A stretch of DNA of 64,000 bases from a virus, in IMG/VR virus record IMGVR_UViG_3300045988_047070. The stretch is one strand, 5' to 3'. The position numbers and the translations under genes are program-made. Of the stretch, positions 6,221 to 49,100 are shown piece after piece. Under the pieces are notes generated by a model. That model ran no database searches. It saw only the letters and a program-made list of their open reading frames with translations, and was not told the origin of the DNA. The first letter of the stretch is position 1; every line of letters begins with the position of its first letter.

Positions 6221-6454
6221 ATTTGATCCCTTTCTTTTGATTAATAATTATACTGATCGTCGTCATCAGTAGGATCTAATGCATCTTCGAATTCATTAAA
6301 AAAGTAAAAGTCATCATCCATAATACTATTATTATGTATTTATATTTTATATCCAGAGTAGGAGTATATATTTTTATTATACTACTATATACTAACCTAC
6401 AAGTATGTGTAGTAACGTTACAGTATTCATTTTTGTTCTATTGTTTACTCTAGA

Positions 6455-6628
6455 TTAATGATTTTTCTTAGGTCTTAATAGATGATTTTTATTAAAAACA
6501 CATGGTAAATAACAGTGTTTACAGCCATTATCTTCTACAGTTCTATCACATTCCCTAGCCTTCTGCTTAGAGAAAAACCACCTAACAACCCATACTGGTA
6601 GCTTATAAAGATCAAAATTTTTTAACAT
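6455..6628 (-). CDS. small Cys-containing protein (57 aa, below the track cutoff)
   Basis: Hand translation: MLKNFDLYKLPVWVVRWFFSKQKARECDRTVEDNGCKHCYLPCVFNKNHLLRPKKNH. Confidence 0.35.
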   Translation of the reverse strand: MLKNFDLYKLPVWVVRWFFSKQKARECDRTVEDNGCKHCYLPCVFNKNHLLRPKKNH

Positions 6629-10766: not shown

Positions 10767-10844
10767 TTCTGTGTAGTTTAAGTGTCTAACACATGGTAGA
10801 ATCCCCTGCTAAGGGCGAATGCAGGTTCGAATCCTGCCACAGAA
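10767..10844 (+). ncRNA. tRNA-shaped RNA without an anticodon loop, with a hairpin inserted in the D-loop
   Basis: Acceptor TTCTGTG/CACAGAA (7 bp). TA-GTTT-AA[GTGTCTAACAC]ATGGTA-GAAT D arm. CCCT-GCTA-AGGG arm. T arm GCAGG-TTCGAAT-CCTGC. Confidence 0.55.
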
Positions 10845-11126
10845 ACATTAAAAATTCATTGATGGTTTTATAGAGAGTTTAAGATTCTCCATTTTAATTT
10901 AACACAGCTACTATATACCTATTGTGAAATACGTATATAGTTTCCCTAGAGTAAAAGCAACCTCATCGTAGCTAACAACAATACTTCATGCGCGTTTGGT
11001 TAATATACAAAGTTAGCGGGTTCTAGGGTCTAGTAGGTTTAAATTGTCAGACTGAACGAATGTCATGACTACCGAAGCTAATAGCTTTTAAAAACAGTAA
11101 ATATTAACAATAAAAATATCAAATTT

Positions 11127-13685: not shown

Positions 13686-14072
13686 ACTATTAGATCATCA
13701 GAAAATGACAAGCATGTGGGGCGTAAGTAGTATTTTTATGCAGGAGAAGAAGAATGGCAATTGTTCTAATTAGTACTGATAATTGCAAATACTATGATCG
13801 TGCGGACGTTAAAATCATGCCGTTAATAAGAATTGTACTGGCAATACAATTCTGCTACAACGTAAAATATGTTATATAGCCGATTATAAGAAGTTTTATG
13901 TAAGAGTTTTTTAATATTTATTTTGCAAGCATAAAACTTTACGATGACACTTGTTATTAGTTGCTCATAGTACAATATGAGTTGTTGTTAATCAACAATC
14001 GTTCAATCAAAACCCTCTCCGTAGTTGTACATACGGAGACGTCATCAAATTGTTTAACTAAAAATTATCAAA

Positions 14073-14620: not shown

Positions 14621-14876
14621 TTACCGCCAGTTACTAGTCCTCAAGTCTATAATTCTTAAATTGTTAAGATATGGTGGTCATTCCCCTAAAGCATGTTAAA
14701 CCTAACGCCCTAAGCCCATAAACGGTATGTGAAGATGCATACTACGGGATTGTGTACTTGTACAAATGATAATCTCACAGGAGGTTATTAATTATAAGAA
14801 GGAGAAGAGGTTCCCTCTGAATAAGAAATAGGAATAAGAGGGCATGCTTATTATTTGAAACTAACACAATTGGGAT

Positions 14877-16008: not shown

Positions 16009-16219
16009 ATTCACGATATAAGAACTGTGTCGTGTCTTATTAGGTTTATTGGAAACTATTAGGACGAGGGTTCGATTAAGATGGTCGAGTTTAAATTGGG
16101 TGAATTCAGGGAACGCTAAACAAAAATGCTCAGAAATGACATTTTTGCATGCCAATCCTGAGCTAAGCATGTAGTACACTACATGAAAGTGCAGAGACTA
16201 CTGGAGAACTAAAGTGTTC

Positions 16220-16744
16220 TTAATTACCAGCTAGAGCGCCCAACCCTTCATTAGAAGGTGAAGAGATAGTCCAAGATTCACGAAACTTTTTAAGTTTCTC
16301 CTCAGAAATGAGGTTCCTATGAACCATTCTGTGGCAATTAGGACATAAAGTTATTAAGTTTGTAATTTCATTTTTACCACCGTTAGATACAGGTATAATA
16401 TGATGAACATCACAAGAAGCTTTATTCCAACCGCATATTGCACAAGGTTGTAATAATAGAAAATTGTAAAATGATCTAGTAATAGCATTATTAGATTTCA
16501 TTCTTTTACGATAATCTTTTAATTTACAAGCATTCGTACAATACTTTGCTTTGGAAGATTGCGCTTCAAATTCCTGTTCACATACAATACATTTACATTT
16601 GTATTTCTTTCTATGTAAATTTCTGTATTTAGCAGCACATGAAAGTGAACAAAATTTTGCATTTCCTCTGTTTACCTCTCGTAAATCAGCTTGGAATTCA
16701 TTATTACAACATAAACATTCTTTTTTCATACAACCATAACGCAT
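16220..16744 (-). CDS. HNH endonuclease with two N-terminal Cys4 zinc-ribbon-like repeats
   Basis: CDVHHIIPVSNGGKNEITNLITLCPNCHRMVH. The only minus-strand gene inside the plus-strand block. Confidence 0.85.
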   Translation of the reverse strand: MRYGCMKKECLCCNNEFQADLREVNRGNAKFCSLSCAAKYRNLHRKKYKCKCIVCEQEFEAQSSKAKYCTNACKLKDYRKRMKSNNAITRSFYNFLLLQPCAICGWNKASCDVHHIIPVSNGGKNEITNLITLCPNCHRMVHRNLISEEKLKKFRESWTISSPSNEGLGALAGN

Positions 16745-17017: not shown

Positions 17018-17082
17018 ATATCTATAGTTTAACGGTAGAACACTGATTATTCAGTAGTGTAGGTTCGAATCCTACTAGATAA
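17018..17082 (+). ncRNA. tRNA-shaped RNA without an anticodon loop
   Basis: ATATCTA-TA-GTTT-AACGGTA-GAAC-ACTGA-TTAT-TCAGT-AGT-GTAGG-TTCGAAT-CCTAC-TAGATAA. A1/A72 are mismatched and C73 follows. Confidence 0.6.
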
Positions 17083-17103
17083 CATAAACTAAAAACAGTA
17101 TGG

Positions 17104-18876: not shown

Positions 18877-18890
18877 AAGTTAGTTTGATT

Positions 18891-19454
18891 ATGAAGAGAG
18901 AAGATGAAGACCTTCTTATTCAGCAAGCTAAGCTTGGTAAGCAAGATGCTTTTACAGAGCTTTATGATCGGCATCATAAGCTTATTCGATACATTATCTA
19001 TGATATTGTAAAGAATGAAGATGTAGCAGATGACTTATTATCTGTTACCTTCACAAAAGCATTTAGTAGATTAGAATCTTATGTAAACCCTATTTCATTT
19101 GAAATGTGGTTAAAAACTATAGCAATTAACACTGCAATAGATTATATAAGATCTTCTAAGAATGAGAAACAGAATCATTATATAGATTCTGAGGACAATT
19201 ACATTCAGTTAGATAGTAACGATCTCAGTCCTGAGGAAGTTATTATGAAACAGGAAACTGTTGAACAACTGAAAGTAGCTCTACATAAATTAAGATCTAA
19301 ATATCGTAACATATTAGAATTACGATATTTCAAAGGCTTAAGTTATGAAGAACTTGCAACTGAGCTTGGCGTGCCAATAGGAACTGTAAAAAGTGACTTA
19401 AACAAAGCTAAGAAGAGATTGCGAGAATTCTTTGACAACATTAACAATAACTAA
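18891..19454 (+). CDS. ECF-type sigma-70 family RNA polymerase sigma factor
   Basis: Region 2 (FTELYDRHHKLIRYIIYDIV...ADDLLSVTFTKAF) and region 4 HTH (LELRYFKGLSYEELATELGVPIGTVKSDLNKAKKRL). Confidence 0.85.
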   Translation: MKREDEDLLIQQAKLGKQDAFTELYDRHHKLIRYIIYDIVKNEDVADDLLSVTFTKAFSRLESYVNPISFEMWLKTIAINTAIDYIRSSKNEKQNHYIDSEDNYIQLDSNDLSPEEVIMKQETVEQLKVALHKLRSKYRNILELRYFKGLSYEELATELGVPIGTVKSDLNKAKKRLREFFDNINNN

Positions 19455-19951: not shown

Positions 19952-21418
19952 ATGGCAAAGAATAAAGCAAAGAAAGGAGCTACTGCTCCGAAAGTAGAGA
20001 CAAAGGCAGCTGAGGAAGTAAAAGTACAAGCTGCTGTAGAAACTAAAGTAGAGGATAAGGCACCGAAGAAGCCTGCACCTCAACCTGATGTACAGCCGAA
20101 AGCTGACACAAAGGAACAAAAGAAACCTGATCCGACACCTGCTGCTGCACCTGCAGAAGGAGCAACAGGCGATCAACCAGCTGTAGTTCAACCAGAAGAG
20201 GTTAATAACGCAGCTATGCCTACGCAAGCAGAGATGTCGGCCGAGGTATTCAAAAATGCAGAATTACAGTCTATTCTCGGTAGTATTTCTCTTACTCCGG
20301 AAAGTACTATGGACGCTAACCACATGGTGTTGTTAACTCACGTAGCTACTGAACGGTTCAAAGGGAAAGATCCGAAGAATCCTGTAGTAATAGCAGCTAA
20401 CGAGATGGTTGATGACCTTACTTGTTACTGTATTGCTGTAGCTGGTATTAACATGGCAATTAACGGCAAGAAACTAGGTATGTCCGTACCTGTTAACGCC
20501 TTAGGAGCTTATGTACGAGCTATGGGATACTTTGGCATTGCATTACCGGCAGAGAAGGCTGTTCCGGATCCTAACAAGCCTGATCAGCTCCTAATTCCGT
20601 TTGAAGGAGCATCTCCTGAGACTGTTGAGACAGTTAAAGAAGAGATCAAGATGCAAAGAGGCACTAAGCCTACCATGGATCCAGCTTTGTGGAAGAGCGA
20701 TGAGGACGCTAAGAAAGCGCTTCTCTATATCCTGAGTGACACATTGTCTAAGGATAATCGTTTCTTAGTATCTACCTCTAAGTTACGTATGTACAAGATG
20801 CTGTCTGCAGAGAACAAGGAAGAGAAGGCTATGTGGGAATCAGCATCCAATGCAACCATATTTGACAATCTTTTGTCAATTCTTGGTACAGCTAAGTCTA
20901 CGTTCTTGAATGCAATTGGAGGACAAATTTATTCGTCCGCCGCTACACAGAAGAATCCGATTAAGAGTCATTTAACTCTTAAGCGTAACTTCCCGCAGTT
21001 ATCTGACGAAGATGCAGCTGAGATCATTAAGATCATAGTAAAGCACAAAGCAGCACAGAATAATCCTAATGAGCCGCTAGAGAATAACATCGCTTGGAAC
21101 GGCTTGAAAGACGGTAAACGTGAAGACTGCTTACTGTATCCTACTAAGACAACGGATGTAGACAAGGAGATTATGGGACGTCTCCAGAATGTCTATGCAG
21201 AACGTTTAGGTAGTCCAGCAGAAGCTGGTTATAACCTCCGTGCCACTAACTTAATTGTTACTATCATGAACTTGTATAAGACTTCTGGACAAATTGCGCA
21301 ACTTGTCGAGCAGAATTATACGGCTGAGGTAAACAAGGCATTAGAGGCAACGTCTGGTAAAACTGCTCCGCAAGAGGAGAAAAAAGACGAGAAGGAGGCA
21401 GAGAAACCGAAAAAATAA
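19952..21418 (+). CDS. hypothetical protein with a ~90-aa disordered K/A/P/E-rich N-terminus
   Basis: 488-aa ORF with GC-richer codon usage than the polymerase or structural genes. Confidence 0.7.
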   Translation: MAKNKAKKGATAPKVETKAAEEVKVQAAVETKVEDKAPKKPAPQPDVQPKADTKEQKKPDPTPAAAPAEGATGDQPAVVQPEEVNNAAMPTQAEMSAEVFKNAELQSILGSISLTPESTMDANHMVLLTHVATERFKGKDPKNPVVIAANEMVDDLTCYCIAVAGINMAINGKKLGMSVPVNALGAYVRAMGYFGIALPAEKAVPDPNKPDQLLIPFEGASPETVETVKEEIKMQRGTKPTMDPALWKSDEDAKKALLYILSDTLSKDNRFLVSTSKLRMYKMLSAENKEEKAMWESASNATIFDNLLSILGTAKSTFLNAIGGQIYSSAATQKNPIKSHLTLKRNFPQLSDEDAAEIIKIIVKHKAAQNNPNEPLENNIAWNGLKDGKREDCLLYPTKTTDVDKEIMGRLQNVYAERLGSPAEAGYNLRATNLIVTIMNLYKTSGQIAQLVEQNYTAEVNKALEATSGKTAPQEEKKDEKEAEKPKK

Positions 21419-21424
21419 TCAATC

Positions 21425-21814
21425 ATGAATCGGTTAACTGATTTCCTTTGGTGTGCATTATTTTCGTTTATAGCGATTATAACTGTCATCAAATTGAGCC
21501 CAAATGAGGCTAAAGCAGAGCAAAAAATGCCCGAGCTTACAATTCCAAAATTCAATCCTGTAGGTCAGTTTGACCTACAGATTGATTTAAACAAGGGAAC
21601 CGCAAACGTCACAAGCAGTAACGGAATAGGTAAAGCCAACGTAACAGTAAATCATCCTACGGAGGTAATTGAGGTTCCAAGTAAACCAATTATTAAAAAG
21701 GAGGTAAAGTATGAAACAAAAACTGAATATTTGGAGAAAGTAGTACTATTTTCTTTACCAGTACCTACATTTCACGTACCAAGTGTTCAGATTCCTAAAA
21801 GCGTAGAGAGATGA
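21425..21814 (+). CDS. secreted or membrane-anchored hypothetical protein
   Basis: N-terminal hydrophobic segment FLWCALFSFIAIITVI. Confidence 0.55.
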   Translation: MNRLTDFLWCALFSFIAIITVIKLSPNEAKAEQKMPELTIPKFNPVGQFDLQIDLNKGTANVTSSNGIGKANVTVNHPTEVIEVPSKPIIKKEVKYETKTEYLEKVVLFSLPVPTFHVPSVQIPKSVER

Positions 21815-21906
21815 AAGCAAAAAATAGTACATTGGATAAATTAGCATTTGTAGGCTTAATTATCTTCTTTATAATGTGTTTATTCTTTGCATGGTGTATA
21901 ACATAA
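21811..21906 (+). CDS. 31-aa single-TM peptide (ATGA overlap)
   Basis: Hand translation: MKAKNSTLDKLAFVGLIIFFIMCLFFAWCIT. Confidence 0.35.
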   Translation: MKAKNSTLDKLAFVGLIIFFIMCLFFAWCIT

Positions 21907-24271
21907 CAGTTAAAGATAAAAGCTGTCGGGTCAAACGACTCCTTACCCGTGGTAAGATGAAGGAGAGTGGTATTGTAGCTGCACACTTAAAAAGCAATAA
22001 GGCAGCGTATGTTTTATTTCGATAAGTCTGATCAACTTATGATATTACGTAGACAAAGAATACAGGATGCCGTAGGGATAGTATATATTCTCCAATATAT
22101 ACATCGAGCCAAGAGCATGATAACCTATTATGAAGTTTATTCTTTTACTTCTGAAAAGTTAATAGGAAAATGGGTCAGTGTGCAAAGCCCATAAATCTTG
22201 AGAACCGGTTGGTGAAGATTAAAAGACACGATCTAGCGCAGCAGCGACGAAGACAAACATTGCAAGGGGTTACTACATAGTAAAGAGATCCTTAAGTAAG
22301 ATCAAATGAATCCCCTTAAGAATCCGTAGGCACTATCAAGTGCGGTTTCAAGTAAGGACGAAATGTAGTTTAAAGGCAAACAAGTTCCATCTGTTTGACC
22401 TAACTTTAATAGACCGAATAGCGTCCATGACGGGTCCAAACCGTCATTAAACAAATAGCTACCTTTAGTGTTCCACTCTACAGTTGTTACTATTTTTGTA
22501 GTATAGTAATAAGGATCTAGACAACATAACATTTGGCTTAGTTATGGATGAGTGTATGAAGAAAGGGTATTTAAAATCAAGAAACTGGTAGGATATACTA
22601 AAAGCTGAGTGGCTATGGCCCATATATAATAATAGAAGAGGTAACGGACTTCTATAATTACTTATGACAGGTTATCCGGAGCAGATGCCAAGTCTGTGCT
22701 TGCAAGAGCTTATAAAGATGTTCACTAGCGTAGAAAACTAGTTAAAATAGTCTTTATAAGGGGGTACTTCAGGTGCTGGGTATTAACTACGTAGGAGTGA
22801 TACTACGTCTTTTAAGATACGCTCTAAAGGATCAGGACAGGTACGATTTTAAATAAAACTGACCGAGTTTTATGTTCAATACTAAAATCAGTATAGAGTT
22901 ATGTCAGTATAAGTCATGGAAACGAACATACGCAGGAGAATAGTGGCGAAAAGACTACCTCAACCCCTAGAGACACCGTGGCGAAGTGTATAGGGTTCGT
23001 ATAAAAAGAGAAACTCACCGCTCTGGTAAACTAAAGGTGTGAGTAAGTTTAGTTTAAGCTTTCTTTAATAGATATAACGAAAGTAGGGCTTTTTATAGTC
23101 AAGGAGCTAAATTCAAGACTAATAAAATAGTGTAATAGTAAGGGAGTATTAATAGTGCGGCTTACAATATCCTTTTGTAAGTATAAATGAACCACTTATA
23201 GTATTTATTTACTCTGGGAAGGAATTCCTATCACTGGCTCGAGAGTTAACGAGACTCTTAAACAAAAGCGGAATTAACATGTCTAACTAACGTAGGTTCA
23301 ACAACCGAATAACAAATTTGTGGATGTCCTCGCTAGGGAAACTGAATGCGACCACAACTTGGCGAATGCGATTGCTTAGTAGTATCAGGGTATAATACGC
23401 AATATTATATGTTCGAGAGAAAGCGTCTCATTGAAGCTTGTAAATCTTTAAGAGTGAACGAAAGTGAACTATTACTTATAGACCTATTTATAAGCGAGAG
23501 TAAATGAGAAGAGGTGAAAGTCCTCGATCTTCATCCAAGTAAAATAAACAAAATCCTAGTCAAGGTTACGTTGGTAGCTCTGTACTTAGTAATAAGTATA
23601 TCTAGCGTAAGAGGTAGGCGTTAGTGAATAACTATATGAGACCTATAAGTTATTACAAATAACAAAGACAAAGATGGCAATTCCTTTGATCGCCTTGCAG
23701 TTTTAGCAACGTTCTGTAAAAACGACCGGACATAACTACTTGCCCGATAAGACAGTTTTAATCATTAGTAAAGTTTATATGAATCTAGATAGGTCAATCT
23801 ATACTAGTTCTATCCCTAGGATATAGTCTTGCTAACTTATTTACTTTACTATTTTTATCTGAGTAACCAGAAAAAACGTGTTGATTATTACGGATCTTCT
23901 GTAATAGAGATTACAGAATATAGTACAGCTTGGAATCAGAACCTAGAATACTCATCGATGAGTTTCATTAGCTCTGGTCACAATGCAGTATGCGGTTCCA
24001 AAGTAAGATATGACTTAGTAAACTTATAAACCTGTCTCGTTTATAAGGAGTATACCGCAATAGCGAATTATCAAGAACGGAATTATTTTGCTTATCATAT
24101 AAATTAAAGTAAAAACATATTTGCATCTTTCCTTGCATAACTTGAATGTTACACGACCGTGGTTTTTAACCTATCTGATATAAGATGATGATAAATCGTG
24201 ACGAAACGCATAGGGAAAGATGTGAGAAAATTTTCATTAATTATTAACTTATCAAAAGGAGGAATTTAAAA
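21907..24271. other. 2.3-kb region with no credible ORF; candidate large structured RNA locus
   Basis: Stops are dense in all six frames. Only 61-76-aa ORFs are tracked. GC is visibly above the flanks, and many local hairpins are present. Confidence 0.5.
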
Positions 24272-24826
24272 ATGGCAAATGTAAATTATAATTTAGTAGT
24301 AGCATCTCAATTAGGTGCATTGTTAGGTATGAACTTGATCCGGATTAAGCGGACTAATGTGGATGCAGATTATTCGAACAAAGAGCGGGAAGGCAAGCAA
24401 CGGCTTGCAAATCCTATCTGGTTACATGGCGTAGAACGCATTCGCATCCGACAAGCAGAACTTGTTGATGTAGGTGACGGTAAAATGGTAGTCCAATTTA
24501 ACCGTGATCCTAAGCTTCAGCTTGATTTAGCAGGAGCTAAAGACATTAGTGATATTATTAAGAAACCGACAGTTCAGGAAGTAGTCTCTGCAATCGCAAG
24601 CGAGTCTACCGGTTTGCCTCAGTTCTTTACTGATGACAAAACTGCAACTGAGTTAACGATTTCATTCAATGAGCGGTCACGGAAGGAGATTAGCTCTATG
24701 ATGGAAACGTTGTCTCGCCAGGCACAAGCATTAGCTGATGCCAATCGTGCTATGGAAGATTCATGCAGATTGAACATGGCCCAATATGGTCAGTCTGTAA
24801 ACTTTCAAAGCGTTAATATTGATTGA
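24272..24826 (+). CDS. hypothetical protein
   Basis: 184 aa with a strong AAGGAGG site upstream and GC-rich codons. Confidence 0.65.
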   Translation: MANVNYNLVVASQLGALLGMNLIRIKRTNVDADYSNKEREGKQRLANPIWLHGVERIRIRQAELVDVGDGKMVVQFNRDPKLQLDLAGAKDISDIIKKPTVQEVVSAIASESTGLPQFFTDDKTATELTISFNERSRKEISSMMETLSRQAQALADANRAMEDSCRLNMAQYGQSVNFQSVNID

Positions 24827-24828
24827 AG

Positions 24829-25341
24829 ATGGAAAATCTCAGCAGATCCTCTAGATTAAATCTAGAACGAATCCTAGCTGATGAAGATATATTCAATTCC
24901 TTTTTGTTTAATGACAAAAAGCCCGGAACTAGAAGTCTAAAAGACGATGGTTCCTTTGTCATTGGTGCGACTTGCTTTGAATGGTGGAATCACTTCATAG
25001 GTTGTGAAAAGAAGTTAAGTTTCCACGATTTAGTAGTGCATCTGATAAACTTCATGGCTGGAAACGGCAAAAATAGAAATGATTTTGCATTAGACGGCTT
25101 ATATCAGGATTTCGTTAACTTTACACTTAAGCAGGATGATAAGAATCGGATGGTAGATATTCTTCTCACAGCTTACTTGTATGGTTATAAAGAGATCCAA
25201 AAGGAGGGGAAGGTTCCTTCTGAACAAACGATATTAGCAGCTGTTACTAAACAAGTGCGAAATCCCGATGGTGTAGCTGTACTTACAGCTAATGGTCCAG
25301 TCTTTTTAGGTAAAGACTTAAAATTCTACGAAATTGAGTAA
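24829..25341 (+). CDS. hypothetical protein
   Basis: ~170 aa. The ATG follows 3 nt after the upstream stop. Confidence 0.6.
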   Translation: MENLSRSSRLNLERILADEDIFNSFLFNDKKPGTRSLKDDGSFVIGATCFEWWNHFIGCEKKLSFHDLVVHLINFMAGNGKNRNDFALDGLYQDFVNFTLKQDDKNRMVDILLTAYLYGYKEIQKEGKVPSEQTILAAVTKQVRNPDGVAVLTANGPVFLGKDLKFYEIE

Positions 25342-25607: not shown

Positions 25608-26909
25608 ATGGTAAAAGATTATAATGAACTGAAAGATATTGCTAAGAAGTTAATGTTAGAGAATAATTATGGCATTAAGGAAGAAGAACTCATCTATGTT
25701 ACAACTACAGATATTACAGATTATTACGAAAAGATTTCTTCACGAGATAAAACTGTATTATCAGAAGTATATGGAACTGAGGAACTACCACTTATACATC
25801 ATTACATCACTCGAGCAGAGGCTAGTACTAAAAAGCTTGAAATGGATGAGGATGATTATAAAAAGAATTTAATGTCTGGAGTAAAAGCATATTATGTTGA
25901 TGATAAGGTATTTTACTATGTAGTATGCCCGTCGCCAACAGATCAAGATGAAGTTTTACGCATGTATGTGTATACTCGAGATATTTACAATTATCTGTGT
26001 GAAACCGCATTAAAAGATGAACTTGAAGTAAAGTCAAACGTACCAAAGTCAGGTATCTACCGAGCACAAGCAGTAGAAACCCGATATGGAACCTATATGC
26101 GTTATAAAGAGATTACTGATATCCAAAGTAATCCAGCTATTCATCAATGTAAAGAAGAACTTATTAAAGGTGTTGACTTCTTCTTTGACAATGTTAAAAT
26201 GTTTTCAAAGTTCAATCAGAAACCGTTACGTAAATTTTTACTATGTGGTGAACCGGGTACAGGTAAAACTTCTATTTGTTACGACGTAGCTAAAAAATAT
26301 TCTGGGGATTCTCCAGTAGTATTCGTTACAGATTTTCAATCTATGGCAATGCACATTCAAGAATGTAGCCGTATTAATCGACGTACTATTGTAGTATTTG
26401 AAGACTGTGAAGCAACGTTAAGTAGTCGTAATAATTCTGCTATTCTTAACTTCCTAGATGGTATTGACCGTCCGAATATTGAGAACGGTGCTATAGTAAT
26501 GATGACAACAAATCATCCTGAACGAATTGAAGCACGTATCTCTAAGCGTCCGGGTCGAATTGACAAGATTTTCCATATCAATGCGTTGGATGGAAAATAT
26601 GCATATGATGTATTCAACTTGTATTTCGGCGACTTTATGAAAGAAAACAAGTTCGATGCTACGACTGATACAGCTCGTGAGGCTATCGAAATTATTGCAA
26701 ATGGTATGACTGGTGCACAGATTAAAGAGTTATTTAACTCTTATGTTTGTTACATGGTCTCTGAAGGTAAAGAGTTTAATTTAACGGATATTTTCGATAC
26801 TAAGGTTAAATTATTTGAATCATTTAATCAGATAGACGAAACTAATAATTCGTTAACATCAAACTTTGAAAACGCTCAAGCAGAACTTTATAAGATTCTA
26901 CGAGCATAA
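25608..26909 (+). CDS. classical AAA+ ATPase
   Basis: Walker A GEPGTGKTS, Walker B VVFEDCE, sensor MMTTNHPE and Arg-finger region RPGRIDK. Confidence 0.85.
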   Translation: MVKDYNELKDIAKKLMLENNYGIKEEELIYVTTTDITDYYEKISSRDKTVLSEVYGTEELPLIHHYITRAEASTKKLEMDEDDYKKNLMSGVKAYYVDDKVFYYVVCPSPTDQDEVLRMYVYTRDIYNYLCETALKDELEVKSNVPKSGIYRAQAVETRYGTYMRYKEITDIQSNPAIHQCKEELIKGVDFFFDNVKMFSKFNQKPLRKFLLCGEPGTGKTSICYDVAKKYSGDSPVVFVTDFQSMAMHIQECSRINRRTIVVFEDCEATLSSRNNSAILNFLDGIDRPNIENGAIVMMTTNHPERIEARISKRPGRIDKIFHINALDGKYAYDVFNLYFGDFMKENKFDATTDTAREAIEIIANGMTGAQIKELFNSYVCYMVSEGKEFNLTDIFDTKVKLFESFNQIDETNNSLTSNFENAQAELYKILRA

Positions 26910-27532: not shown

Positions 27533-27599
27533 AGTGTAATAGTTTAATGGTAGAACGTAACATTTTTGTTAAAGTGAGAGTTCGAATCTCTCTTACACA
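27533..27599 (+). ncRNA. tRNA-shaped RNA without an anticodon loop
   Basis: AGTGTAA-TA-GTTT-AATGGTA-GAAC-G-TAACA-TTTT-TGTTA-AAGT-GAGAG-TTCGAAT-CTCTC-TTACACA. A1/A72 are mismatched and C73 follows. Confidence 0.6.
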
Positions 27600-27644
27600 C
27601 TCCGTTACAAATTAACATTGTAAATTTATCAAAAATTTAAAGAA

Positions 27645-40820: not shown

Positions 40821-43800
40821 TTATCCAATACGATTTATCATATCATTTAGCTTCTCTCGTGGATTCTTCATATTATAGTAGGCATTAAGTATTGGAATAA
40901 CTTTAATAAAGTCTCTTTGCCATCCCTTTAATCCTTTATAAGCACCTCTTTCAATTTCTTCATATTTTCTACTACTCAAATAAGATAACGGATTAATAAC
41001 CCTATTAACATCTACAAATGTTTGAATCAATGGAGTAATAGAATTAAGAATATCGAATACATCCATTGCATTGTATCTAGAACCAGATTCTAATGAAATC
41101 TTCTTTAATTCTAATCGTAAGAATTGAGTAAACCAATAATCATCATCGTCTGCACCCATTCCAAATAGGTTAAATATAGTTAACCAGAAGAAATATGTGA
41201 ATATTTGAGCATTAAATCTCCTAATATGTAAATCTATTTGTTTTTTTACATCTACATCAGGATATTGTTCTTGTAACTCTTTTAACTTTTCATCATTTCT
41301 TCCTGTAAGTACTCTCAATAGCTTAATAAGATTTCTATCAGAACCATATTTCCATCCGTAGAAATATGCTGATGCTGTTCCCATCGATAACTCTTTTGTC
41401 TGGTAATTCCAGTACATTGGAGATATTGTATTTTCTATATTTTTTGGAATAAAAGCACGGAACATAAGTATAGTACTAAGGGCTGGTAATAAATGAACAC
41501 CACTTTTATCTGCTTCCTCAACCATACCTTCTGCATGACTAGATATAGACCCTAACTTAGCAGTTATTTCTTCTTCTAACTCAGCAGTAACATATGGTGC
41601 ATACTTGGGTTTTACTCTAAACCCATCTTTCATTTCATATGCGTTCCATAAATTATCTTTAGCGTTTCTATATATAGCCTTACGCTCTTCTATAGACTTA
41701 TTAAGAAAATGGTTATCTAGAAAATCGTTCTCAGAAATAAAATGTAATTGCCCATCTTCTAATCGAATTAACTTATAGTTTAAATAAACTGAAACAGTAA
41801 ATGCACTATTAGGTAAAAATGACATTAATTTAAAAGCAGAGTATGGTTCTGCAGCTCTAGTAATCATTCTACCTATTCTCCATCTATTAGTATTAGATAA
41901 ATCTTCCTCCTGATTAAAAGTAAGACCATTATATTCTAATGCACCTATCAATTTATTATTAGCTTGATTCTTACCAAATTGACTAGCAACTTTCAAGCTA
42001 ATTAATTCTTTTGTTAAAATACTATTTGCAATAGTGAAATCATGCATATTATAATGCTTACGAACAAAAGCATCATTAGCATAAAAACTCCATGCAGCAA
42101 CTCCACCAGATATTGCAGAACGTAAGTTCCAAGACAAACCAATATCTCTACCCCATCTTGAAAAATGCTCAAATACTTTATCTAAAGAAATCTTATAACC
42201 TTTTAATGTTACTTCAGGTAATATATCTCGTCTACCATAAATATGATAACCTATGTAAGTATGAACTGCATCTGCTAATTTGCTGCTTGCAGCAGGCTTA
42301 GTAAAACCTTTTTGTCTAATAGAACCAGCATTAGTAATTAAACTGTCTAATAGATTTAATTGAGGGGCCACTTTCTTTTTATTCTCATAATTACAAGCCA
42401 TTCTGTAATATTTAGTAATAGCTCCAATTAAATCATTAGTACCAGAAGCAGGATCAGTAAGCATAGTAGTATACATAGTAGGCATAATATTTATTTCTGT
42501 ACCATTAGGCCTAGTTTCTACTTTTACTCCATGTATTTCATCATCTGGTTGAATACCAAATGCATTTATCATATAATTTCTTGTTCCTGTAATAAGCCCT
42601 CTATTACCCCAATAATTAAATATATTACCATTAATTTGTGGTAGCTTATAGTTATTTTTATAATTAGAGTGAGTAATTTTATCATTAGCTTCATTCATAA
42701 CATCTAGAATAACATTTCTAAGATTAACTAAAGCAGGATCTCTCATTACAGCATTGTAAGCTTTTCTATTATCGTATTCTTTAATAGATAATTTAGGTTG
42801 TTCTGTCTCTGGTATACTGTTATCATAGTTTTTATTATAGAACTTAGATTCTTCAGATGTCTCAGCCCAATTGCTATTTGGTACTCTATGCATGTACTGT
42901 TGACGTACTGGTATTACTTTGGTCATATAAGAAGCATAGTGTTTTACTCCTTTATCGTCTACCCATATATCGTCAGGTGATACAGCACTTTTACCTCCAT
43001 TTTCTTTTGCTATATCACTAAGTTCAGATTTAAATAGTCTAACACTGCTAGCAGTTTTTTTAGTACGCTTCCTAACATTATACATTGCTATATCAAGCTC
43101 TTTAATTTTATCCTTAACAGCTTGAGGCATTCTAGTATAATCTGGTTCAAATTTATCAGTTCTATATAATCTTAATAGATTGTATCTAGCTTGATATAAC
43201 CTATCATATATTTCACCATAATCTTTTTTATTTTGCCTAGATACTTTTTCTTTAAATTCATCTGTAAGTTCCCATCTAGTATTACGCTCTAACCAAGCAC
43301 TATACAATGTATTGCTTCCATCTGGAGTATATCCTTCCATGTTTTTCATTCTTTCCATTTCTTCTAGGAAAGCATCCATATCCACTTTAGATTCTAAACC
43401 TTCTTGTAGTTTAGCATATGCTTCTGTAAGTTCAGCAGCTATCTGTGCTTCTACACTACCTTCTGGTTTTAATTCTCCAGTAATAGGATCATAAGGATTT
43501 GCAAGATTCCGTTTCTTCTCTAATAACCTAATATATTTTTGATATTCATCTATTGGCATTCTTTCGAATCTAGGTTTATTAGTATTACTATCTCTGTATG
43601 GTTTTAATATATTATCTATCTCTAGGTTTACTTCAGATAGAGCCATATTAGCTTCCATACTTAGATTAGTAAAGATAGCATAAAACTCTGGTGTGTATTT
43701 TCTTTCACAATTCTCAGACTTCCAATCATTATAATCTTTTTGATATTGTATCCATAGAGAAGGATTAAGTTTAAGCTCATCAATACTGGCTAATTTATGA

Positions 43801-46112
43801 TTCTTTAGCCAATCTTTTCTAAACTTATATTTATTATTTTGATATACACCATATTTACGATCTCTAATTAAATATCCAGTCTTTTTACCATCTACATCCC
43901 TTTCAAATAAAAGGTTATGATCTCTTGTTTCTTTTGCTGCTTTATATAATTCAGCATACTTACGATAAACCTGTTTATGAGTCATAGAGTTAACATCCCC
44001 AATAACTTTTCTCAATAGTTTGATAACAAATTTAGGTGAGTTTACAGGAGTAGCAAAGAATCTATGATACCAATTTAAATCACCATCAAAAGTAAGCCAG
44101 TTCATCAGAGCTCTATCTATATTAGGATCTTTAGCTTCTTCCATTTCAGTACGCAAGAACTTTTCTACTGTTCTTCTAACTGAGTTCCCATACATGTAAC
44201 CAATGTTTTCTCTATCTATCATCTTTTTAGATGAGAATTCTCTAATCAATCCATCTACTACAGATAATATATTATCAAATTCATTAGTACCTAATATATT
44301 TTCATAAATATTCCTATTAAATTCTGTATTTAGCTCATTATAAAGTTTACGTAAATTACTCTCATGTGGGTATAAATACTCAGCACCAAAGTTATCTAAA
44401 GCAGTCCTTAGTTTAGTAAGTTCTTCAGTATCATTTGTTATCTGTGCAGTACTTATCTTTTCATCAATAGTTTTGATTACTCTTTCTGCTTCGTCCAGAC
44501 TGTATATTACATTATCTACATACTCTAGACTACCATTAAGGAAATTAGTAATGTTATTGACACCTTCTACATCTGTTATAGAATTCTGGATACTTCTAAG
44601 ACTAGATAGTAATTTGTCATTACGTAAATTTTCGTTTCTATCAAATTTATCTTCTATAACATTGTACCTTAAAGAAGCCACACGGTTCTCTGCTGTTTTA
44701 ACCATATCAGAGAATACAGATCTGAGTTTGATAGAAGCAATTTCTTCACGCTTACTGGCTGCTGGTAAAACATCGGGTATATAATCATAAGAATCTTCTC
44801 TTTGCTCTAGAGTTTGATATGCATTAAATTCAATAACATTATCTACTATTTTATTAATTAGATCTTGATGAGTAGTATTTTTACCAAACAATCTCTTAAA
44901 CCAATCAATAATCCTTTGAATTAATGTTTTTTCTCCTTTTGTAGCAGGGAAGTCAAACATATTGTGAATGACCTCAGGATTAGAAAATAGCTCTGCAGCA
45001 AACTCATATACATTCTTACTAGCATGGTCATCATGCTTTTCTGCATACTCTTTTTGAATCTTTCTAAGTTCATTCGCTGCTTCAGTATTTGAAGCTAACG
45101 AGTCTAGAGTAATAGCATGGGCTATTTCATGTAATAATACATTTTCTAATGAACCATATCTACTGAAATCACCATTTCTATTTACTACAATCGCGTTAGA
45201 TTTTCTGTCATATATAGCAGGTGTCCAGTAAGTAGCTTCAGGATACATTTCATTTAATGGTCTATCTATATATTCAATAGATACTGGCTGCATATTTATT
45301 TTACTAGCAACATCATTGAGTACAGTAGCCATTTCAGAATCCATATTATCTAATAGTTCTTTACTATTACTATAAGATTGCATAGATTCTAATTGACTTA
45401 TATTTTCTGTGTTACTATCTGCTAGATATATGTTATTCTCCTGAGTAGAGAATGTACCTTGATTATCTATTGATTTTACATTATTTGGATTATTTATAAC
45501 ATAAATATTTTGATTTAATTCTTGATTGTCATCAATACCGTGAAATATAGCAATATCTGCTTCTTCAGCTGCACGATTTATAGTTGCAGTAAAACTTTCT
45601 CCTTGTTTTTTTAAATCGTCTTTTGTACCAGTTTTTTCAATTACAGTATTAGCTTTTAAAAATACAGGAAATTTATATTCTCTATCTAAAACTGTGCCTT
45701 TTTTAGGATTTGCTGTACCAGTAAAGAATAAAGCTTTTTTCGTTCCGTTTTTGATTGTAGAAAAGTAGTTATCAAATTCTATAGAAAACTCGTTTATAGG
45801 AGAATTGGCGTGATGATATACTACTAAAGGTTCACCATTTTCATCTACTACTTTGGATTCACCAAACCATTCTTTAAAACTCTTAGAATAAGTTCTAGCT
45901 TTAGCTTGAATAGCAGCTACTCTATCACCATTATAATGCTCTAAAAGGTCTGAAAAGAGCTTAGATGGCTCCCCATTGGGAGCCTTATCTATGCCATTAC
46001 CATTGTTCTGCGACCATATATGATAAGCCGCTGCTTCACTAGTTGCATTTTTTAATTCTTCAAATTCTCTTGCAACTTCTTCATTTTTTAAATTAGGACA
46101 AATTATTTTCAT
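40821..46112 (-). CDS. giant virion/ejected polyvalent protein with a zincin-like HExxH motif
   Basis: 1763 aa. LLHEIAHAITL at aa 328-332 (45117-45131). Confidence 0.8.
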   Translation of the reverse strand: MKIICPNLKNEEVAREFEELKNATSEAAAYHIWSQNNGNGIDKAPNGEPSKLFSDLLEHYNGDRVAAIQAKARTYSKSFKEWFGESKVVDENGEPLVVYHHANSPINEFSIEFDNYFSTIKNGTKKALFFTGTANPKKGTVLDREYKFPVFLKANTVIEKTGTKDDLKKQGESFTATINRAAEEADIAIFHGIDDNQELNQNIYVINNPNNVKSIDNQGTFSTQENNIYLADSNTENISQLESMQSYSNSKELLDNMDSEMATVLNDVASKINMQPVSIEYIDRPLNEMYPEATYWTPAIYDRKSNAIVVNRNGDFSRYGSLENVLLHEIAHAITLDSLASNTEAANELRKIQKEYAEKHDDHASKNVYEFAAELFSNPEVIHNMFDFPATKGEKTLIQRIIDWFKRLFGKNTTHQDLINKIVDNVIEFNAYQTLEQREDSYDYIPDVLPAASKREEIASIKLRSVFSDMVKTAENRVASLRYNVIEDKFDRNENLRNDKLLSSLRSIQNSITDVEGVNNITNFLNGSLEYVDNVIYSLDEAERVIKTIDEKISTAQITNDTEELTKLRTALDNFGAEYLYPHESNLRKLYNELNTEFNRNIYENILGTNEFDNILSVVDGLIREFSSKKMIDRENIGYMYGNSVRRTVEKFLRTEMEEAKDPNIDRALMNWLTFDGDLNWYHRFFATPVNSPKFVIKLLRKVIGDVNSMTHKQVYRKYAELYKAAKETRDHNLLFERDVDGKKTGYLIRDRKYGVYQNNKYKFRKDWLKNHKLASIDELKLNPSLWIQYQKDYNDWKSENCERKYTPEFYAIFTNLSMEANMALSEVNLEIDNILKPYRDSNTNKPRFERMPIDEYQKYIRLLEKKRNLANPYDPITGELKPEGSVEAQIAAELTEAYAKLQEGLESKVDMDAFLEEMERMKNMEGYTPDGSNTLYSAWLERNTRWELTDEFKEKVSRQNKKDYGEIYDRLYQARYNLLRLYRTDKFEPDYTRMPQAVKDKIKELDIAMYNVRKRTKKTASSVRLFKSELSDIAKENGGKSAVSPDDIWVDDKGVKHYASYMTKVIPVRQQYMHRVPNSNWAETSEESKFYNKNYDNSIPETEQPKLSIKEYDNRKAYNAVMRDPALVNLRNVILDVMNEANDKITHSNYKNNYKLPQINGNIFNYWGNRGLITGTRNYMINAFGIQPDDEIHGVKVETRPNGTEINIMPTMYTTMLTDPASGTNDLIGAITKYYRMACNYENKKKVAPQLNLLDSLITNAGSIRQKGFTKPAASSKLADAVHTYIGYHIYGRRDILPEVTLKGYKISLDKVFEHFSRWGRDIGLSWNLRSAISGGVAAWSFYANDAFVRKHYNMHDFTIANSILTKELISLKVASQFGKNQANNKLIGALEYNGLTFNQEEDLSNTNRWRIGRMITRAAEPYSAFKLMSFLPNSAFTVSVYLNYKLIRLEDGQLHFISENDFLDNHFLNKSIEERKAIYRNAKDNLWNAYEMKDGFRVKPKYAPYVTAELEEEITAKLGSISSHAEGMVEEADKSGVHLLPALSTILMFRAFIPKNIENTISPMYWNYQTKELSMGTASAYFYGWKYGSDRNLIKLLRVLTGRNDEKLKELQEQYPDVDVKKQIDLHIRRFNAQIFTYFFWLTIFNLFGMGADDDDYWFTQFLRLELKKISLESGSRYNAMDVFDILNSITPLIQTFVDVNRVINPLSYLSSRKYEEIERGAYKGLKGWQRDFIKVIPILNAYYNMKNPREKLNDMINRIG

Positions 46113-46118
46113 ATATGA

Positions 46119-49100
46119 TTACTTTATACAATGATTCATTTCATCTGTAGGAAATTCATTCTCATTATTGAATTCATTAGTCTGTTCAGTCTGTTCAGTC
46201 TGTTCATTTTCAGAAGTAGAAGGTTGTTCAATAGTGTTTTCTACCACTTCACCATTTTCATCCATACTAGTATCTACTAATGGAGCTGAATCATTTTCAA
46301 CAGTACTAAACATATAATCAATTGTATTTCTTGAATAAAATACTCCACTTAATGGTTTACCACTTACCTTATTAGTTTGTGAATTAATTTTTGGTACAAT
46401 CTCATTGTTAATAATATCTGGAATATCTTCTAAGAAGTTATTATCATATTTAGCAAATCTTGGAGCAACATTATTACCCGGAATAATAGAGAATCTAGAT
46501 ATATATTTACTTCCAGTAGTATATGGAGATAAGTATTCAGATACAAACCCTTTACCACCTTGTCTAAATCCTTTCTTATTCACTAATATATATAATGGTT
46601 TATATGTTTTAGTTTTACCATTATCTTTAATAAATGTACCAACATATTTATATAGATTATATCCACCAGTAGCATTGTTATCTCTCATTTTAACATATGG
46701 ATGGTACAATGGAACATCAGTATCATCTTTACAAACATATCTTCTAGAAGATCCTTTAATAGCTACAGGAACTAATCTATTACCAACTTTTTCTCTATGA
46801 ATATAGATACCTTTAGTATTTGTATTTATTACAGGAACCATGTTATTATCTTGCCAGTTATTACGATAGATTTCATCTACATCATCTGGAGTGAACAGAT
46901 TAGAGAAATCATCTATATTTTTCTCTAAAGTTCTTACAGTTTCATAATAACCAAGTTCATCTAATACCCTAGTAGGTATAAAATCAAATAGAGAATTCAA
47001 GTGTTTAGTACCATGACCACTAAATACTGCATATCGAACTAAATCATAAGCTAAATCATGTAATTCTTGATTATCACTATCTAATAATTCTTGCCAGTAT
47101 TCTCTAATCTGTCTACTAGCATTAGAACTAATATCATCTGAATAATCTAAACGAACATAATCTATAGCTTTACCTGTGGTATCAGTTACACCAGTAATAC
47201 TATTAAGGAATAGATTACTAATTCTACCATTAGTGACGGAAATGATTGGATATTTACCACCTTTGGAAGCAGCATCAGAGATAATATCAGTTTTAATCCT
47301 ATTAATTCTCTTAGCAATGGTATTAGGACCAATGAATAGGTCTCTCAGCTCTTTCATACTATTAATTAATGGACTACTAGTACTATCATACAATGCATAA
47401 GCTCTCCAGTAAGAATCAATAGCATTAGTAAATGCTGTTACAGCTTGTTTATCTTTTACTTTGGAAAATCCACTAGCATTAATAAGAGATCTAAATACCC
47501 TATAGTACTCATCAGAAGATTGTATATTAATTTTACCAAGTAAATCCAATGTGAACTTGATACTATTATCTATCTTCTTTTGTAAGAATGTTTCCTTAAA
47601 GAATTTATTAATCATTTCTGATGTGAAATATGGACTAGTATAACAATCAGCAACATTCTGTAAGAAAGTTCTCATTTCAATAGAGTTCTTACCAAACTTC
47701 TTAGTATCTACTTGAGAAGCCTTTACAAGATCAGACATTGCCTGAGCCATAGGTTCTATTTCTTTGAATAACTTATATACAAGTATTTGTCCATAGTAAT
47801 AATCAAAATCTTTTTCTTTATCATTTGCTTTACGAAGAAGATTTTCTAAATAACCTAACTTTCCTTGTTCAGGAACCTCAAACAATACTTGATCTGTAAC
47901 TTGTTCATTCTTAAGCAAGAGATCAAGATTTTCTTTATCCTCATTGGATTTAGCTAAACTCTTTGCTTTAGTAACAAATTTATCATATACTGCTTTTTCC
48001 TTCTCTTGGAATCTTCTATAGAATGGTTTAGTGTTATCTATGCCATAAACTCCCCTACTCTGTATATAATCATTTGCAAGATCTTTCATGATCTCTTGTG
48101 AAACAAAATACATAGTATTCTTGCCAGCACCATTTCTTAATAAAAAGTTAGTAAGATTATAGGTAAATCCATTTACATTTAGTTTGATGATATAGTTATC
48201 CTTAGCAACGTCAACGTGAGCACTAATCAATGCAGATAACCAGTCTAGAATATGAATATCATCTACACCACTTACTTTATGCAAGTTACCTATATTCGGT
48301 AAGTACTCTGGAGATTGCATTACTAATTCAACTAACTGACCTAATACATGATGCGGGTTATTTAATGCAAATGGCCCAATACCACCTTTACTATCAGCAA
48401 AGTCTTGTTTTAAAGTATCTTGATATTCTTCTGTATACTCATATAAAGCAGCATCATTCTTTTTATCAGGGAAATACTTCTTTACAATACCGTTTTTCAT
48501 GATGTTAACAGGAACATCCAATGGTCTAGTAGTATCGTGAGTATTCTTAGAATCAAGTAATGAAGCCATAAATGTATCAATCAATAGGTTTTCTATAGCA
48601 CCCTGAGATTGTTCATTCATTGACTTATTATAATCAAATTCTGTCTTAGAAGATATATAAGGATAAACTTTATAGGTTGCGTCTGTAACATCATACACAA
48701 CATTAGAATTCTTACTTTTAAGATAATCATTAACTAATGTTGCCATATTCTGCGTTGATCTTCTTGTAACAGGCTCACCGTCTTTAATAGCTAAGATTTC
48801 ATCAGCATATTCATTAAATCCACTTAATGCTAATTCTTTTTCATCTTTAGTTGCTTCTCTTCCGGGTTTATTACTTCTACGAGAAGTATAATTATATCTT
48901 GTTAAGAATAACTTATCAATATCAAAGTCAGAACCAGTTCTTGCAGTAAACTCATCTGGTAATATAATTATATCTCCAGCTTGAGACATTACTACATCTT
49001 TAATAGTTAAAGCAGCGATAGAAGACATACCCTGAGTAGGTACACGATATGCCATTGCAGATGGTGAAGCATTTGGACCAATTATATTGTTATCCATTAA

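Follow-up and report, generated by a model that had tools for sequence, protein, structure and literature searches.

Large, ornate non-coding RNAs are rare, and ribosomal RNA (rRNA), RNase P, group II introns, OLE, GOLLD and ROOL have each revealed new RNA biology. The abundant crAss-like phages of the human gut include the Suoliviridae, a group in which no function is known for most early genes. We analyzed a locus free of open reading frames (ORFs) at positions 21907-24271 of a 64,000-nt stretch of viral DNA (IMG/VR record IMGVR_UViG_3300045988_047070; the whole stretch is referred to as the window), for which an initial annotation had proposed a large structured RNA. That proposal was supported: no ORF emerges in alternative codes, there is no codon signal, and both sequence and structure are conserved among relatives. 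From these comparisons, the locus is probably a new, very large, modular structured RNA that matches no described family, and the broader statement that it specifies a functional structured RNA is more probable still.

GOLLD is a very large structured non-coding RNA encoded by phages and prophages, often near transfer RNA (tRNA) genes; part of it is universally conserved and part is more variable. ROOL is a large, ornate phage or prophage RNA found near tRNA islands for which no protein partner is known; both were recently shown to self-assemble into cages (PMC12286853). Like GOLLD, the locus combines conserved domains with variable segments, and the phage block around it is rich in tRNAs and other RNA genes. 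At 2.1-2.4 kb it is about three times longer than GOLLD (~800 nt), and it would exceed the largest phage non-coding RNAs known by the same factor. Its closest tRNAs lie 4.8 kb upstream (17018) and 3.3 kb downstream (27533). GOLLD is sporadic in phages of Firmicutes, Actinobacteria and marine samples. Unlike GOLLD and ROOL, the locus has the behavior of a core gene: all Suoliviridae genomes examined, from five subfamilies, carry it at one fixed syntenic position, and parts of it evolve more slowly than the adjacent proteins. With ROOL it would share the character of a large phage RNA near tRNA genes, but ROOL is several-fold shorter and no sign of its pseudoknotted architecture was seen in the locus. 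The initial annotation had pointed to GOLLD and ROOL as RNAs of such neighborhoods, an argument that stands as an analogy and fails as an assignment to either family, for which no model match was obtained. Large ornate non-coding RNAs of phages are an established kind of element; new are this family, its size and its core-gene behavior.

No Rfam 15 family reached its gathering score in the gap, and the scan, proposed earlier as a check, was negative for GOLLD, ROOL, HEARO, introns, RNase P, transfer-messenger RNA (tmRNA) and ribozymes. A permissive scan of 21300-24900 (E ≤ 10) returned seven noise matches of about 15-23 bits, compared with gathering scores of 37-85. The gaps of 12 relatives likewise contained no Rfam family, while the same scans did find the nearby Hatchet, RAGATH-9, RAGATH-7-associated, RAGATH-20, group I intron, permuted tmRNA and tRNA elements; ARAGORN found nothing in the gap. 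The element was not described in the literature covered by full-text searches, which included the main crAss-like genomics papers and a review.

Individual candidates were also rejected. GOLLD (RF01998) gave no covariance-model match at the gathering score or at E ≤ 10 in 21300-24900, nor in the gaps of the 12 relatives, and ROOL (RF03087) gave none in the window or in those gaps. A group I or II intron is disfavored by the lack of an Intron_gpI, Intron_gpII or group-II-D1D4 match in the gap at E ≤ 10 in a scan that recovers the real group I intron at 16009-16292, and the genes on either side are intact ORFs that have a stop, ribosome-binding site (RBS) and start of their own. There was no model match for HEARO/omega RNA, and no Pfam or PHROG transposon-nuclease domain in the neighbors. 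RNase P RNA, tmRNA and rRNA were not matched either, in a scan whose sensitivity is shown by the permuted tmRNA found in a relative (L060 3420-3688). A template RNA of a UG/Abi or DRT-like reverse transcriptase, an idea taken from PMC9226505, was set aside, there being no reverse-transcriptase gene nearby.

In its general architecture the locus is reminiscent of group II introns, RNase P RNA and rRNA, with conserved cores, multi-helix junctions, terminal loops (GNRA-like and T-loop-like), long-range closing helices and expansion segments at fixed points. It differs from these large ribozymes in having no Rfam match, flanking exons, intron-encoded protein or recognized catalytic motif, and catalytic activity would be pure speculation. 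Hatchet, RAGATH-9, RAGATH-7-associated and RAGATH-20 share with it the Suoliviridae early region, the strand and a discovery only by comparative gut-metagenome analysis (Breaker lab), but they are motifs of 100-180 nt, none of them overlaps the gap, and no RAGATH match beyond noise was found inside it.

A non-coding locus at a fixed position in Suoliviridae genomes

The window is the uncultured crAss-like phage cr10_1 (MT774382; Crassvirales, Suoliviridae, Boorivirinae, Canhaevirus), to which the region is 99.4% identical in reverse orientation, and the cr10_1 record annotates a single 61-aa hypothetical coding sequence (CDS) across the 21907-24271 stretch. The start at 21907 proposed in the initial annotation is exact, since an unannotated micro-ORF ends at 21906 (Table 1). 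This micro-ORF overlaps the stop of the upstream 129-aa gene (ATGA) and is kept at the protein level in three lineages, including cr50_1 and cr1_1, as judged by translations. The AAGGAGG noted earlier ahead of the downstream gene is likewise present.

The locus is non-coding under any genetic code. Its description as a coding desert is borne out by a longest stop-free run of 79 codons in any of the six frames of 21907-24271, and exactly the three short ORFs listed before (at least 60 aa) were recovered: 22009-22194 on the + strand (61 aa), 22302-22532 on the - strand (76 aa) and 23829-24029 on the + strand (66 aa). As also anticipated, recoding opens no ORF: when TGA is read as sense, runs reach 102 codons at most, and the same treatment of TAG and TAA gives at most 95 and 142. 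When three lineages that are about 27% divergent were aligned and variable columns were counted by position modulo 3, the gap was flat, with 0.37/0.41/0.36 of columns varying at the three positions, in comparison to a clear codon signature in the four flanking genes (0.47/0.34/0.76, 0.50/0.39/0.67, 0.44/0.29/0.76 and 0.39/0.24/0.70); the downstream 184-aa gene has strong codon periodicity. At p < 0.01, none of the 180-nt windows within 21632-24211 deviates from a flat profile, in contrast to most windows in the genes. The GC content, described initially as clearly higher than in the flanks, is unremarkable: 0.357 for the region against a window mean of 0.332 with a standard deviation of 0.026 for windows of this size, which places it within one standard deviation, and the left and right flanks have 0.377 (above the region) and 0.343.

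GenBank records do contain minus-strand CDSs of 160-168 aa inside two homologous gaps, those of cr7_1 (L111 3079-3561) and Bohxovirus (L112 2907-3413). The cr7_1 CDS has two in-frame TAG codons and needs read-through, and the two products are 31% identical over 67 aa only. These are probably spurious calls antisense to the RNA.

Alignment of relatives, the comparison on which the proposal had been made to depend, revealed strong conservation of sequence and structure. In 26 Boorivirinae-type genomes and contigs, an ORF-free gap of 2262-2514 nt lies between the same ~130-aa and ~180-aa genes, and a metagenome scan added 48 further human-gut contigs and a sixth deep lineage. The six lineages (A-F) are 55-75% identical across the gap and have in common invariant blocks such as GAGAACCG, UUAUCCGGA, CGAGAGUUAACG and AGAAAGCGU; the flanking proteins are only 24-31% identical between lineages with near-identical RNA blocks, and the downstream protein 29-32%. 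Within 23315-23614, lineages A, B and C differ from one another at only 9-15% of columns, which is below the second codon positions of the neighboring genes and indicates strong purifying selection on non-coding sequence. By these alignments, purifying selection on the locus is stronger than that on the neighboring proteins.

The gap keeps its place well beyond Boorivirinae. The gene order consists of an ECF sigma factor, genes of ~140, ~470 and 130-190 aa, the gap of 1.9-2.5 kb, and genes of ~200 and ~190 aa, and the gap occupies this syntenic position in all five Suoliviridae subfamilies: Boorivirinae, Oafivirinae (cr130_1, cr131_1, cr272_1, cr7_1 and Bohxovirus), Loutivirinae (cr52_1), Bearivirinae (cr6_1) and Uncouvirinae (cr115_1 and cr118_1). 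An unclassified lemur virus (Dulem virus 42) has the same order as the Oafivirinae loci, and the hosts sampled for the Suoliviridae genomes examined are humans, macaques, pigs and a lemur. Between Boorivirinae and Oafivirinae gaps, nhmmer and blastn recovered nothing but a 17-nt GAGAACCG motif, and homology became visible only with covariance models. The element accounts for a recurrent hole in the annotation of dozens of reference genomes, along with some of the spurious ORFs called there.

Compensatory base-pair changes and covariance models

A MAFFT L-INS-i alignment misplaced 22450-22900 between lineages, and E-INS-i was used instead for the main alignment of 13 sequences, with column shuffles (n = 8) that keep the gap pattern and conservation as controls. 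RNAalifold gave -431.4 kcal/mol for the + strand, compared with -234 ± 11 kcal/mol in the shuffles, and 163 covarying pairs, 86 of them without exception, compared with 59 ± 6 and 11 ± 3. A poorer earlier alignment led to the same overall result. Under a strict filter requiring at least 4 bp, at least two compensatory pairs and at most 8% exceptions, 21 helices were retained, spread over 21978-24087. The helix that closes the core (23358-62/23535-39), for example, occurs as CUUGG/CCAAG and CAAGC/GCUUG. Across the aligned lineages, base-pairing is kept by compensatory changes.

Four hairpins had been quoted in the initial annotation. Three of them, at 22427-22447, 22789-22808 and 23014-23045, show compensatory changes, which for the latter two are confined to lineages A-C; the fourth, at 22854-22872, was not upheld, the covariation at this site residing in a competing helix, 22858-63/22903-08. 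The short direct repeats mentioned alongside them are two-copy matches only (12-30 nt, 70-92% identity), with no tandem or iteron-like arrangement.

The individual domains were also tested against shuffles and against controls in which the pairing partners were slid. For the core junction in seven Boorivirinae sequences, 97.7% of cells were paired and 15 pairs were compensatory; none of 500 shuffles equaled this, and 37-54% of cells were paired when partners were slid. With sequences drawn from five subfamilies, in alignments that were fitted to models and lean toward pairing for that reason, 98.1% of cells were paired in the 5' domain (15 sequences; 16 of 18 pairs compensatory) and 94.3% in the core (18 sequences; 35 of 44 pairs compensatory), and in neither case did any of 500 shuffles reach the observed value. 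Over the three tests, slid partners gave 29-54% pairing.

Covariance models of the 5' domain (R1) and the core junction (R2), trained on Boorivirinae only, were run without filters on ten loci that represent the other four subfamilies. The best R1 match fell in the gap and on the + strand at all ten loci; the strongest match scored 77 bits (E 1e-11), the weakest 17 bits (E 0.5), and nine had E ≤ 0.05. The best R2 match fell in the gap and on the + strand at nine of ten loci, with E ≤ 0.003 in eight and a top score of 46.5 bits (E 8e-9). Their order is constant, R2 follows R1 at 986-1240 nt, and 681-727 nt separate the end of the R2 match from the next gene in nine genomes out of ten. Of the IMG/VR loci, 37 were reached independently through the sigma-factor gene and tested, and each of them carries exactly one R2 match at the expected distance. 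In the 100-kb genome of crAss001 (Steigviridae), used as a specificity control, there was no R1 match and the best R2 match had E 0.36. R1 and R2 can be used as a specific marker of the family. A model of the middle domain (R3) has matches that keep the order in Loutivirinae (E 1e-4) and weaker ones in Bearivirinae (E 0.087).

The + strand is moderately, not decisively, favored. The consensus fold is 51 kcal/mol better in the forward direction (-380.4 kcal/mol for the reverse complement); on a strand-neutral structure computed without G:U pairs, departures were G:U in 100 instances and A:C in 54 (p = 2.6e-4); and the neighboring genes and the GC skew run in the + direction. Because searches for a promoter or terminator belonging to the locus itself found none, it would be transcribed together with the surrounding rightward early or middle genes.

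Interpretation of the locus and alternative explanations

We propose that the + strand from ~21907 to ~24100-24270 specifies a modular, highly base-paired non-coding RNA of 2.1-2.4 kb, which would be an ancestral, vertically inherited hallmark of Suoliviridae. Its universal domains would be a 5' domain with the invariant GAGAACCG internal loop and, 1.0-1.24 kb downstream, a central multi-helix junction; covarying helices and lineage-specific expansion segments appear to fill the space between them, an architecture typical of rRNA, RNase P, group II introns and GOLLD. The folded RNA would be the acting form, and tertiary or partner contacts may be made by the recurrent conserved loops (GUCCAAA, GCCAA and GUCAAA) and the T-loop-like hairpins (UGAAAGU and UAACGGA). 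By analogy to GOLLD and ROOL, one guess is that it serves during infection as a trans-acting structural RNA or ribonucleoprotein scaffold; a scaffold or assembly role is a doubtful suggestion at this stage. More ambitiously, the whole 2.1-2.4 kb could be one globally folded RNA, a ribozyme or a self-assembling or ribonucleoprotein machine needed for host takeover, for example by contact with ribosomes, tRNAs or RNA-processing enzymes. We hold this version only tentatively. If it is true, the locus would be the largest structured non-coding RNA outside rRNA in any bacterium or phage and the core 'RNA gene' of a whole family of abundant human-gut phages. The element offers a concrete handle on Suoliviridae infection biology and a new target for RNA structure determination by methods such as cryo-electron microscopy.

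Whether the locus yields one contiguous RNA or several is evenly balanced in our assessment: the conserved order and spacing favor one unit, and the weak covariation over kilobase ranges makes several RNAs possible. A tandem cluster of independent, smaller structured RNAs of 100-400 nt each (5' domain, middle domain and core junction) is rather unlikely but has to be taken seriously. It would account for the fact that the best-supported helices are local or span at most 500 nt, for the near-absence of covariation in the ~1-kb helix 22224-28/23280-84, and for the independent behavior of the three domain models, of which R3 went undetected in Oafivirinae; many small RNA genes (Hatchet, RAGATH-9, RAGATH-7-associated, RAGATH-20 and permuted tmRNA) also lie nearby in the same genomes. 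A cluster fits less well with the order and spacing of R1, R2 and the next gene, which are conserved over five subfamilies, with the failure to find internal + strand promoters or terminators, and with covarying helices that run throughout the locus and leave no spacer-like unconstrained stretch apart from the lineage-specific insertions, themselves similar to expansion segments.

The other explanations are less probable. That the locus is a giant cis-acting untranslated region, either a structured 5' leader of the operon of the 184-aa gene or the 3' untranslated region of the upstream operon, is improbable. Such a region would act on the mRNA, on its translation, stability or processing, instead of being an RNA gene. 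The locus has the strand of both neighbors and no detected promoter or terminator of its own, and conserved elements lie right before the downstream RBS (the block at 24141-24200 in lineages A-C and a hairpin in D-F); but its length of 2.1-2.4 kb, its more than 20 covarying helices and its multi-helix junctions put it far beyond known bacterial and phage leaders, the most conserved core is ~730 nt from the downstream start codon, and a fast-evolving downstream protein beside a nearly invariant RNA core is the opposite of what would be expected of a mere regulator. A DNA-level element, such as a replication origin, packaging site or single-stranded DNA structure with hairpins in DNA, is more improbable again. 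Compensatory changes would preserve DNA hairpins too, and this large conserved non-coding region is near a replication-type AAA+ ATPase (25608-26909; clamp-loader or DnaC-like matches), but cumulative GC skew is monotonic through the region without an inflection, the region has no iterons, tandem repeats or AT-rich unwinding element and its GC content is no lower than the window mean, the excess of G:U over A:C indicates that one strand is functional, and known origins do not resemble multi-helix junctions with conserved loops spread over 2 kb. That the locus is coding or mobile sequence in decayed or disguised form (a pseudogene, a recoded or intron-split gene, or a group I/II intron remnant) is scarcely credible. 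Suoliviridae are reported to be intron-rich (PMC10136315), a group I intron is located 5.6 kb upstream, and some records annotate ORFs in the homologous gaps; set against this, the gap lacks codon periodicity, no frame is opened by recoding, no intron model matches even at E ≤ 10, the cr7_1 minus-strand ORF needs two TAG read-throughs and bears only a weak likeness to the Bohxovirus ORF, and length and sequence blocks are kept across five subfamilies in a manner unlike decay.

Several points weigh against a single large structured RNA, or against parts of that proposal. The many local helices seen by eye in the initial annotation do not exceed chance in one sequence: its minimum free energy shows no excess stability over dinucleotide shuffles (z = -0.60 and +0.61), and the structural signal is purely comparative. 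For that comparative signal, the sequences share descent and two of the alignments (A6 and A12) are model-fitted, which makes the shuffle controls liberal. The helices of kilobase range that would join the domains covary weakly, and conservation is lower in the middle domain and in the last 500-600 nt at the 3' end. Oafivirinae have no R3 match, cr118_1 is missed by R2, the matches of R2 in Bohxovirus and of R1 in cr7_1 are weak, and the covariance-model E-values are rough, their calibration having been short. The reverse strand, too, scores far above shuffles because Watson-Crick covariation is symmetric, so that the strand call rests on modest asymmetries. At the ends of the locus, no + strand intrinsic terminator, sigma-70-like promoter or Bacteroidetes -7 box (TAnnTTTG) was found, and we infer transcription, transcript ends and processing alike. 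The flanking orphan proteins give no functional clue: apart from the ECF sigma factor and the AAA+ ATPase, the neighboring proteins have no Pfam or PHROG matches; the profile of the 488-aa family had no match below E 0.03 among PDB sequences; the 184-aa protein had no Pfam, PHROG or fold match, its AlphaFold model (predicted local distance difference test score, pLDDT, of 73.7) having no Foldseek PDB match below E 1; and the homologue search returned close relatives only.

Features of the locus and its surroundings

Table 1 Features of the locus and its boundaries, in window coordinates.
Feature	Position	Strand	Details
ORF-free locus	21907..24271 (2365 nt)	+	Candidate giant structured RNA or RNA cluster
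Micro-ORF, 31 aa, hydrophobic, MKAKNSTLDKLAFVGLIIFFIMCLFFAWCIT	21811..21906	+	5' boundary of the non-coding locus
Two 5'-terminal hairpins, ACAGU/GCUGU and CGGGU...ACCCG	21906..21949	+	Right after the micro-ORF stop; CGGGU/ACCCG, CAGGU/ACCUG, CGGGG/CCCCG
5' domain (model R1)	22118..22262	+	7-bp helix 22124-30/22160-66; hairpin AUGGG/CCCAU 22170-74/22188-92; hairpin 22195-22219
Hairpin with conserved GUCCAAA loop	22427..22447	+	5/6 pairs covary: UGACGG/CCGUCA, GGGUGU/GCAUCC, GGUAGU/GCUACC
Middle domain (model R3)	22598..22712	+	AGCU-GAGU-GGCU hairpin; long helix 22615-25/22662-75; hairpin GGAGCAGAU-GCCAA-GUCUGUGCU
Expansion segment, ~135 nt, with ACGUAG...CUACGU hairpin 22789-22808	22711..22847	+	Lineages A-C; absent in D-F (E-INS-i)
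Central block, highly conserved	23058..23310	+	Invariant runs and covarying helices
Hairpin UUGUGG...CCACAA	23318..23357	+	5/6 pairs compensatory, no exception: UUGUGG/CCACAA, CCAGGG/CCUUGG, AUCGAG/CUCGAU
Core multi-helix junction (model R2), 8 helices, 45 pairs	23358..23545	+	Closed by CUUGG/CCAAG; substitution rate 0.09-0.15
3' region, less conserved, covarying hairpins 23727-46, 23789-802, 23858-71, 23960-74, 24073-87	23700..24090	+	
Block CTTGAATG...ACGACCGTGGTTTTTAACCTATCTGATATAAGATGATG... upstream of the next gene	24141..24200	+	Conserved in lineages A-C (alignment)
Shine-Dalgarno AAGGAGG 24256-62 and syntenic 184-aa gene, ATG 24272 (24272-24826)	24256..24826	+	3' boundary

The third element of the 5' domain, the hairpin at 22195-22219, contains an asymmetric internal loop (5'-GAGAA/NG-3') closed by CC-GNNU-GG, and the GAGAACCG sequence at 22200-22207 is invariant in Boorivirinae and near-invariant across the family. 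In the window, UCUU-GAGAACC/GGUGA-AGA resembles Kt-7, and we considered a canonical k-turn, defined as a 3-nt bulge followed by tandem sheared G.A/A.G pairs in fixed register. The would-be L1/1n positions covary as a Watson-Crick pair, however (U-A in 6 and C-G in 3; U-A in 11 and C-G in 4 in a larger set), so that the GAGAACCG motif is a 5-nt/2-nt asymmetric internal loop rather than a k-turn in that register. Loops of the GYCAA type recur at 22687-22691 (GCCAA) and 21932-21937 (GUCAAA).

Lineages D-F, which are without the expansion segment of A-C, have other extra segments, placed after 22445; lineage-specific inserts of this sort make up an expansion-segment pattern as in large RNAs. The central block includes a hairpin, GCUUUCUU/AACGAAAGU, at 23058-65/23076-84, a helix GAGCUA/UGGCUC (23104-09/23235-40) around a variable insert, and, as invariant elements, the hairpin GAGAGU-UAACGAG-ACUCUU (23241-59) and the stretches AAAAGCG and UAACAUGU. 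In the core, the hairpin GAGG-UGAAAGU-CCUC (23511-25) has a T-loop-like 7-nt loop; UAACGGA hairpins are T-loop-like as well.

Directly before the downstream RBS, lineages A-C share the block ACGACCGUGGUUUUUAACCUAUCUGAUAUAAGAUGAUG (window 24141-24200), and lineages D, E and F have a conserved hairpin, CCGUnGGUGGAAUCAACCACGGAAUCAA (L003 ~6440-6470, L002 ~6470-6500 and L102 on the minus strand; columns 2828-2856 of alignment A3). The two may be alternative regulatory, promoter or 3'-end elements.

The initial annotation had placed the locus in the same accessory block as tRNA-shaped elements, which agrees with the tRNAs at 17018 and 27533, the Hatchet ribozyme, RAGATH-9 and the group I intron identified here. 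The last three lie on the + strand within 2.6 kb of sequence, at 13694-13820 (Hatchet, 102.7 bits), 14674-14852 (RAGATH-9, 94.8 bits) and 16009-16292 (group I intron, 65 bits). A 174-aa ORF on the minus strand (16220-16744) overlaps the 3' part of the group I intron match and could be a homing endonuclease. Rfam tRNA matches are found at 10767-10845 and 17018-17083, both missed by ARAGORN, and at 27533-27600 (54.1 bits), where ARAGORN reports a 'tRNA-???' with a two-base anticodon (tt); these three tRNAs may be unusual or of suppressor type.

The early regions of other Suoliviridae are similarly a hotspot of RNA genes, with a permuted tmRNA, up to two Hatchet ribozymes per locus, RAGATH-9, RAGATH-7-associated and RAGATH-20 motifs, a group I intron and tRNAs, all sharing the strand of the giant RNA locus (L060 3420-3688; L114 2091-2216, 3826-3979 and 5219-5321; L115 325-443, 1876-2021, 3158-3279 and 3317-3576; L116 1514-1637, 3690-3828 and 5250-5429). 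GenBank annotates tmRNAs in cr52_1 and cr115_1.

Upstream of the locus by 2.5 kb, the window encodes an ECF-type sigma factor with Sigma70_r2, r4 and ECF domains (18885-19454) that is conserved across Suoliviridae, and 467 IMG/VR contigs encode relatives of it. In crAss001, an unannotated gap of ~900 nt (L199 43266-44170; record 95965-96869) is located beside gp96, a protein with a TROVE (Ro60-like) domain, and might be the site of a Y-RNA-like partner. On the minus strand of the window, a 4266-aa ORF (46119-58919) is followed by a 1763-aa ORF (40821-46112), and by position and size these are probably the giant virion RNA-polymerase-type proteins of crAss-like phages.

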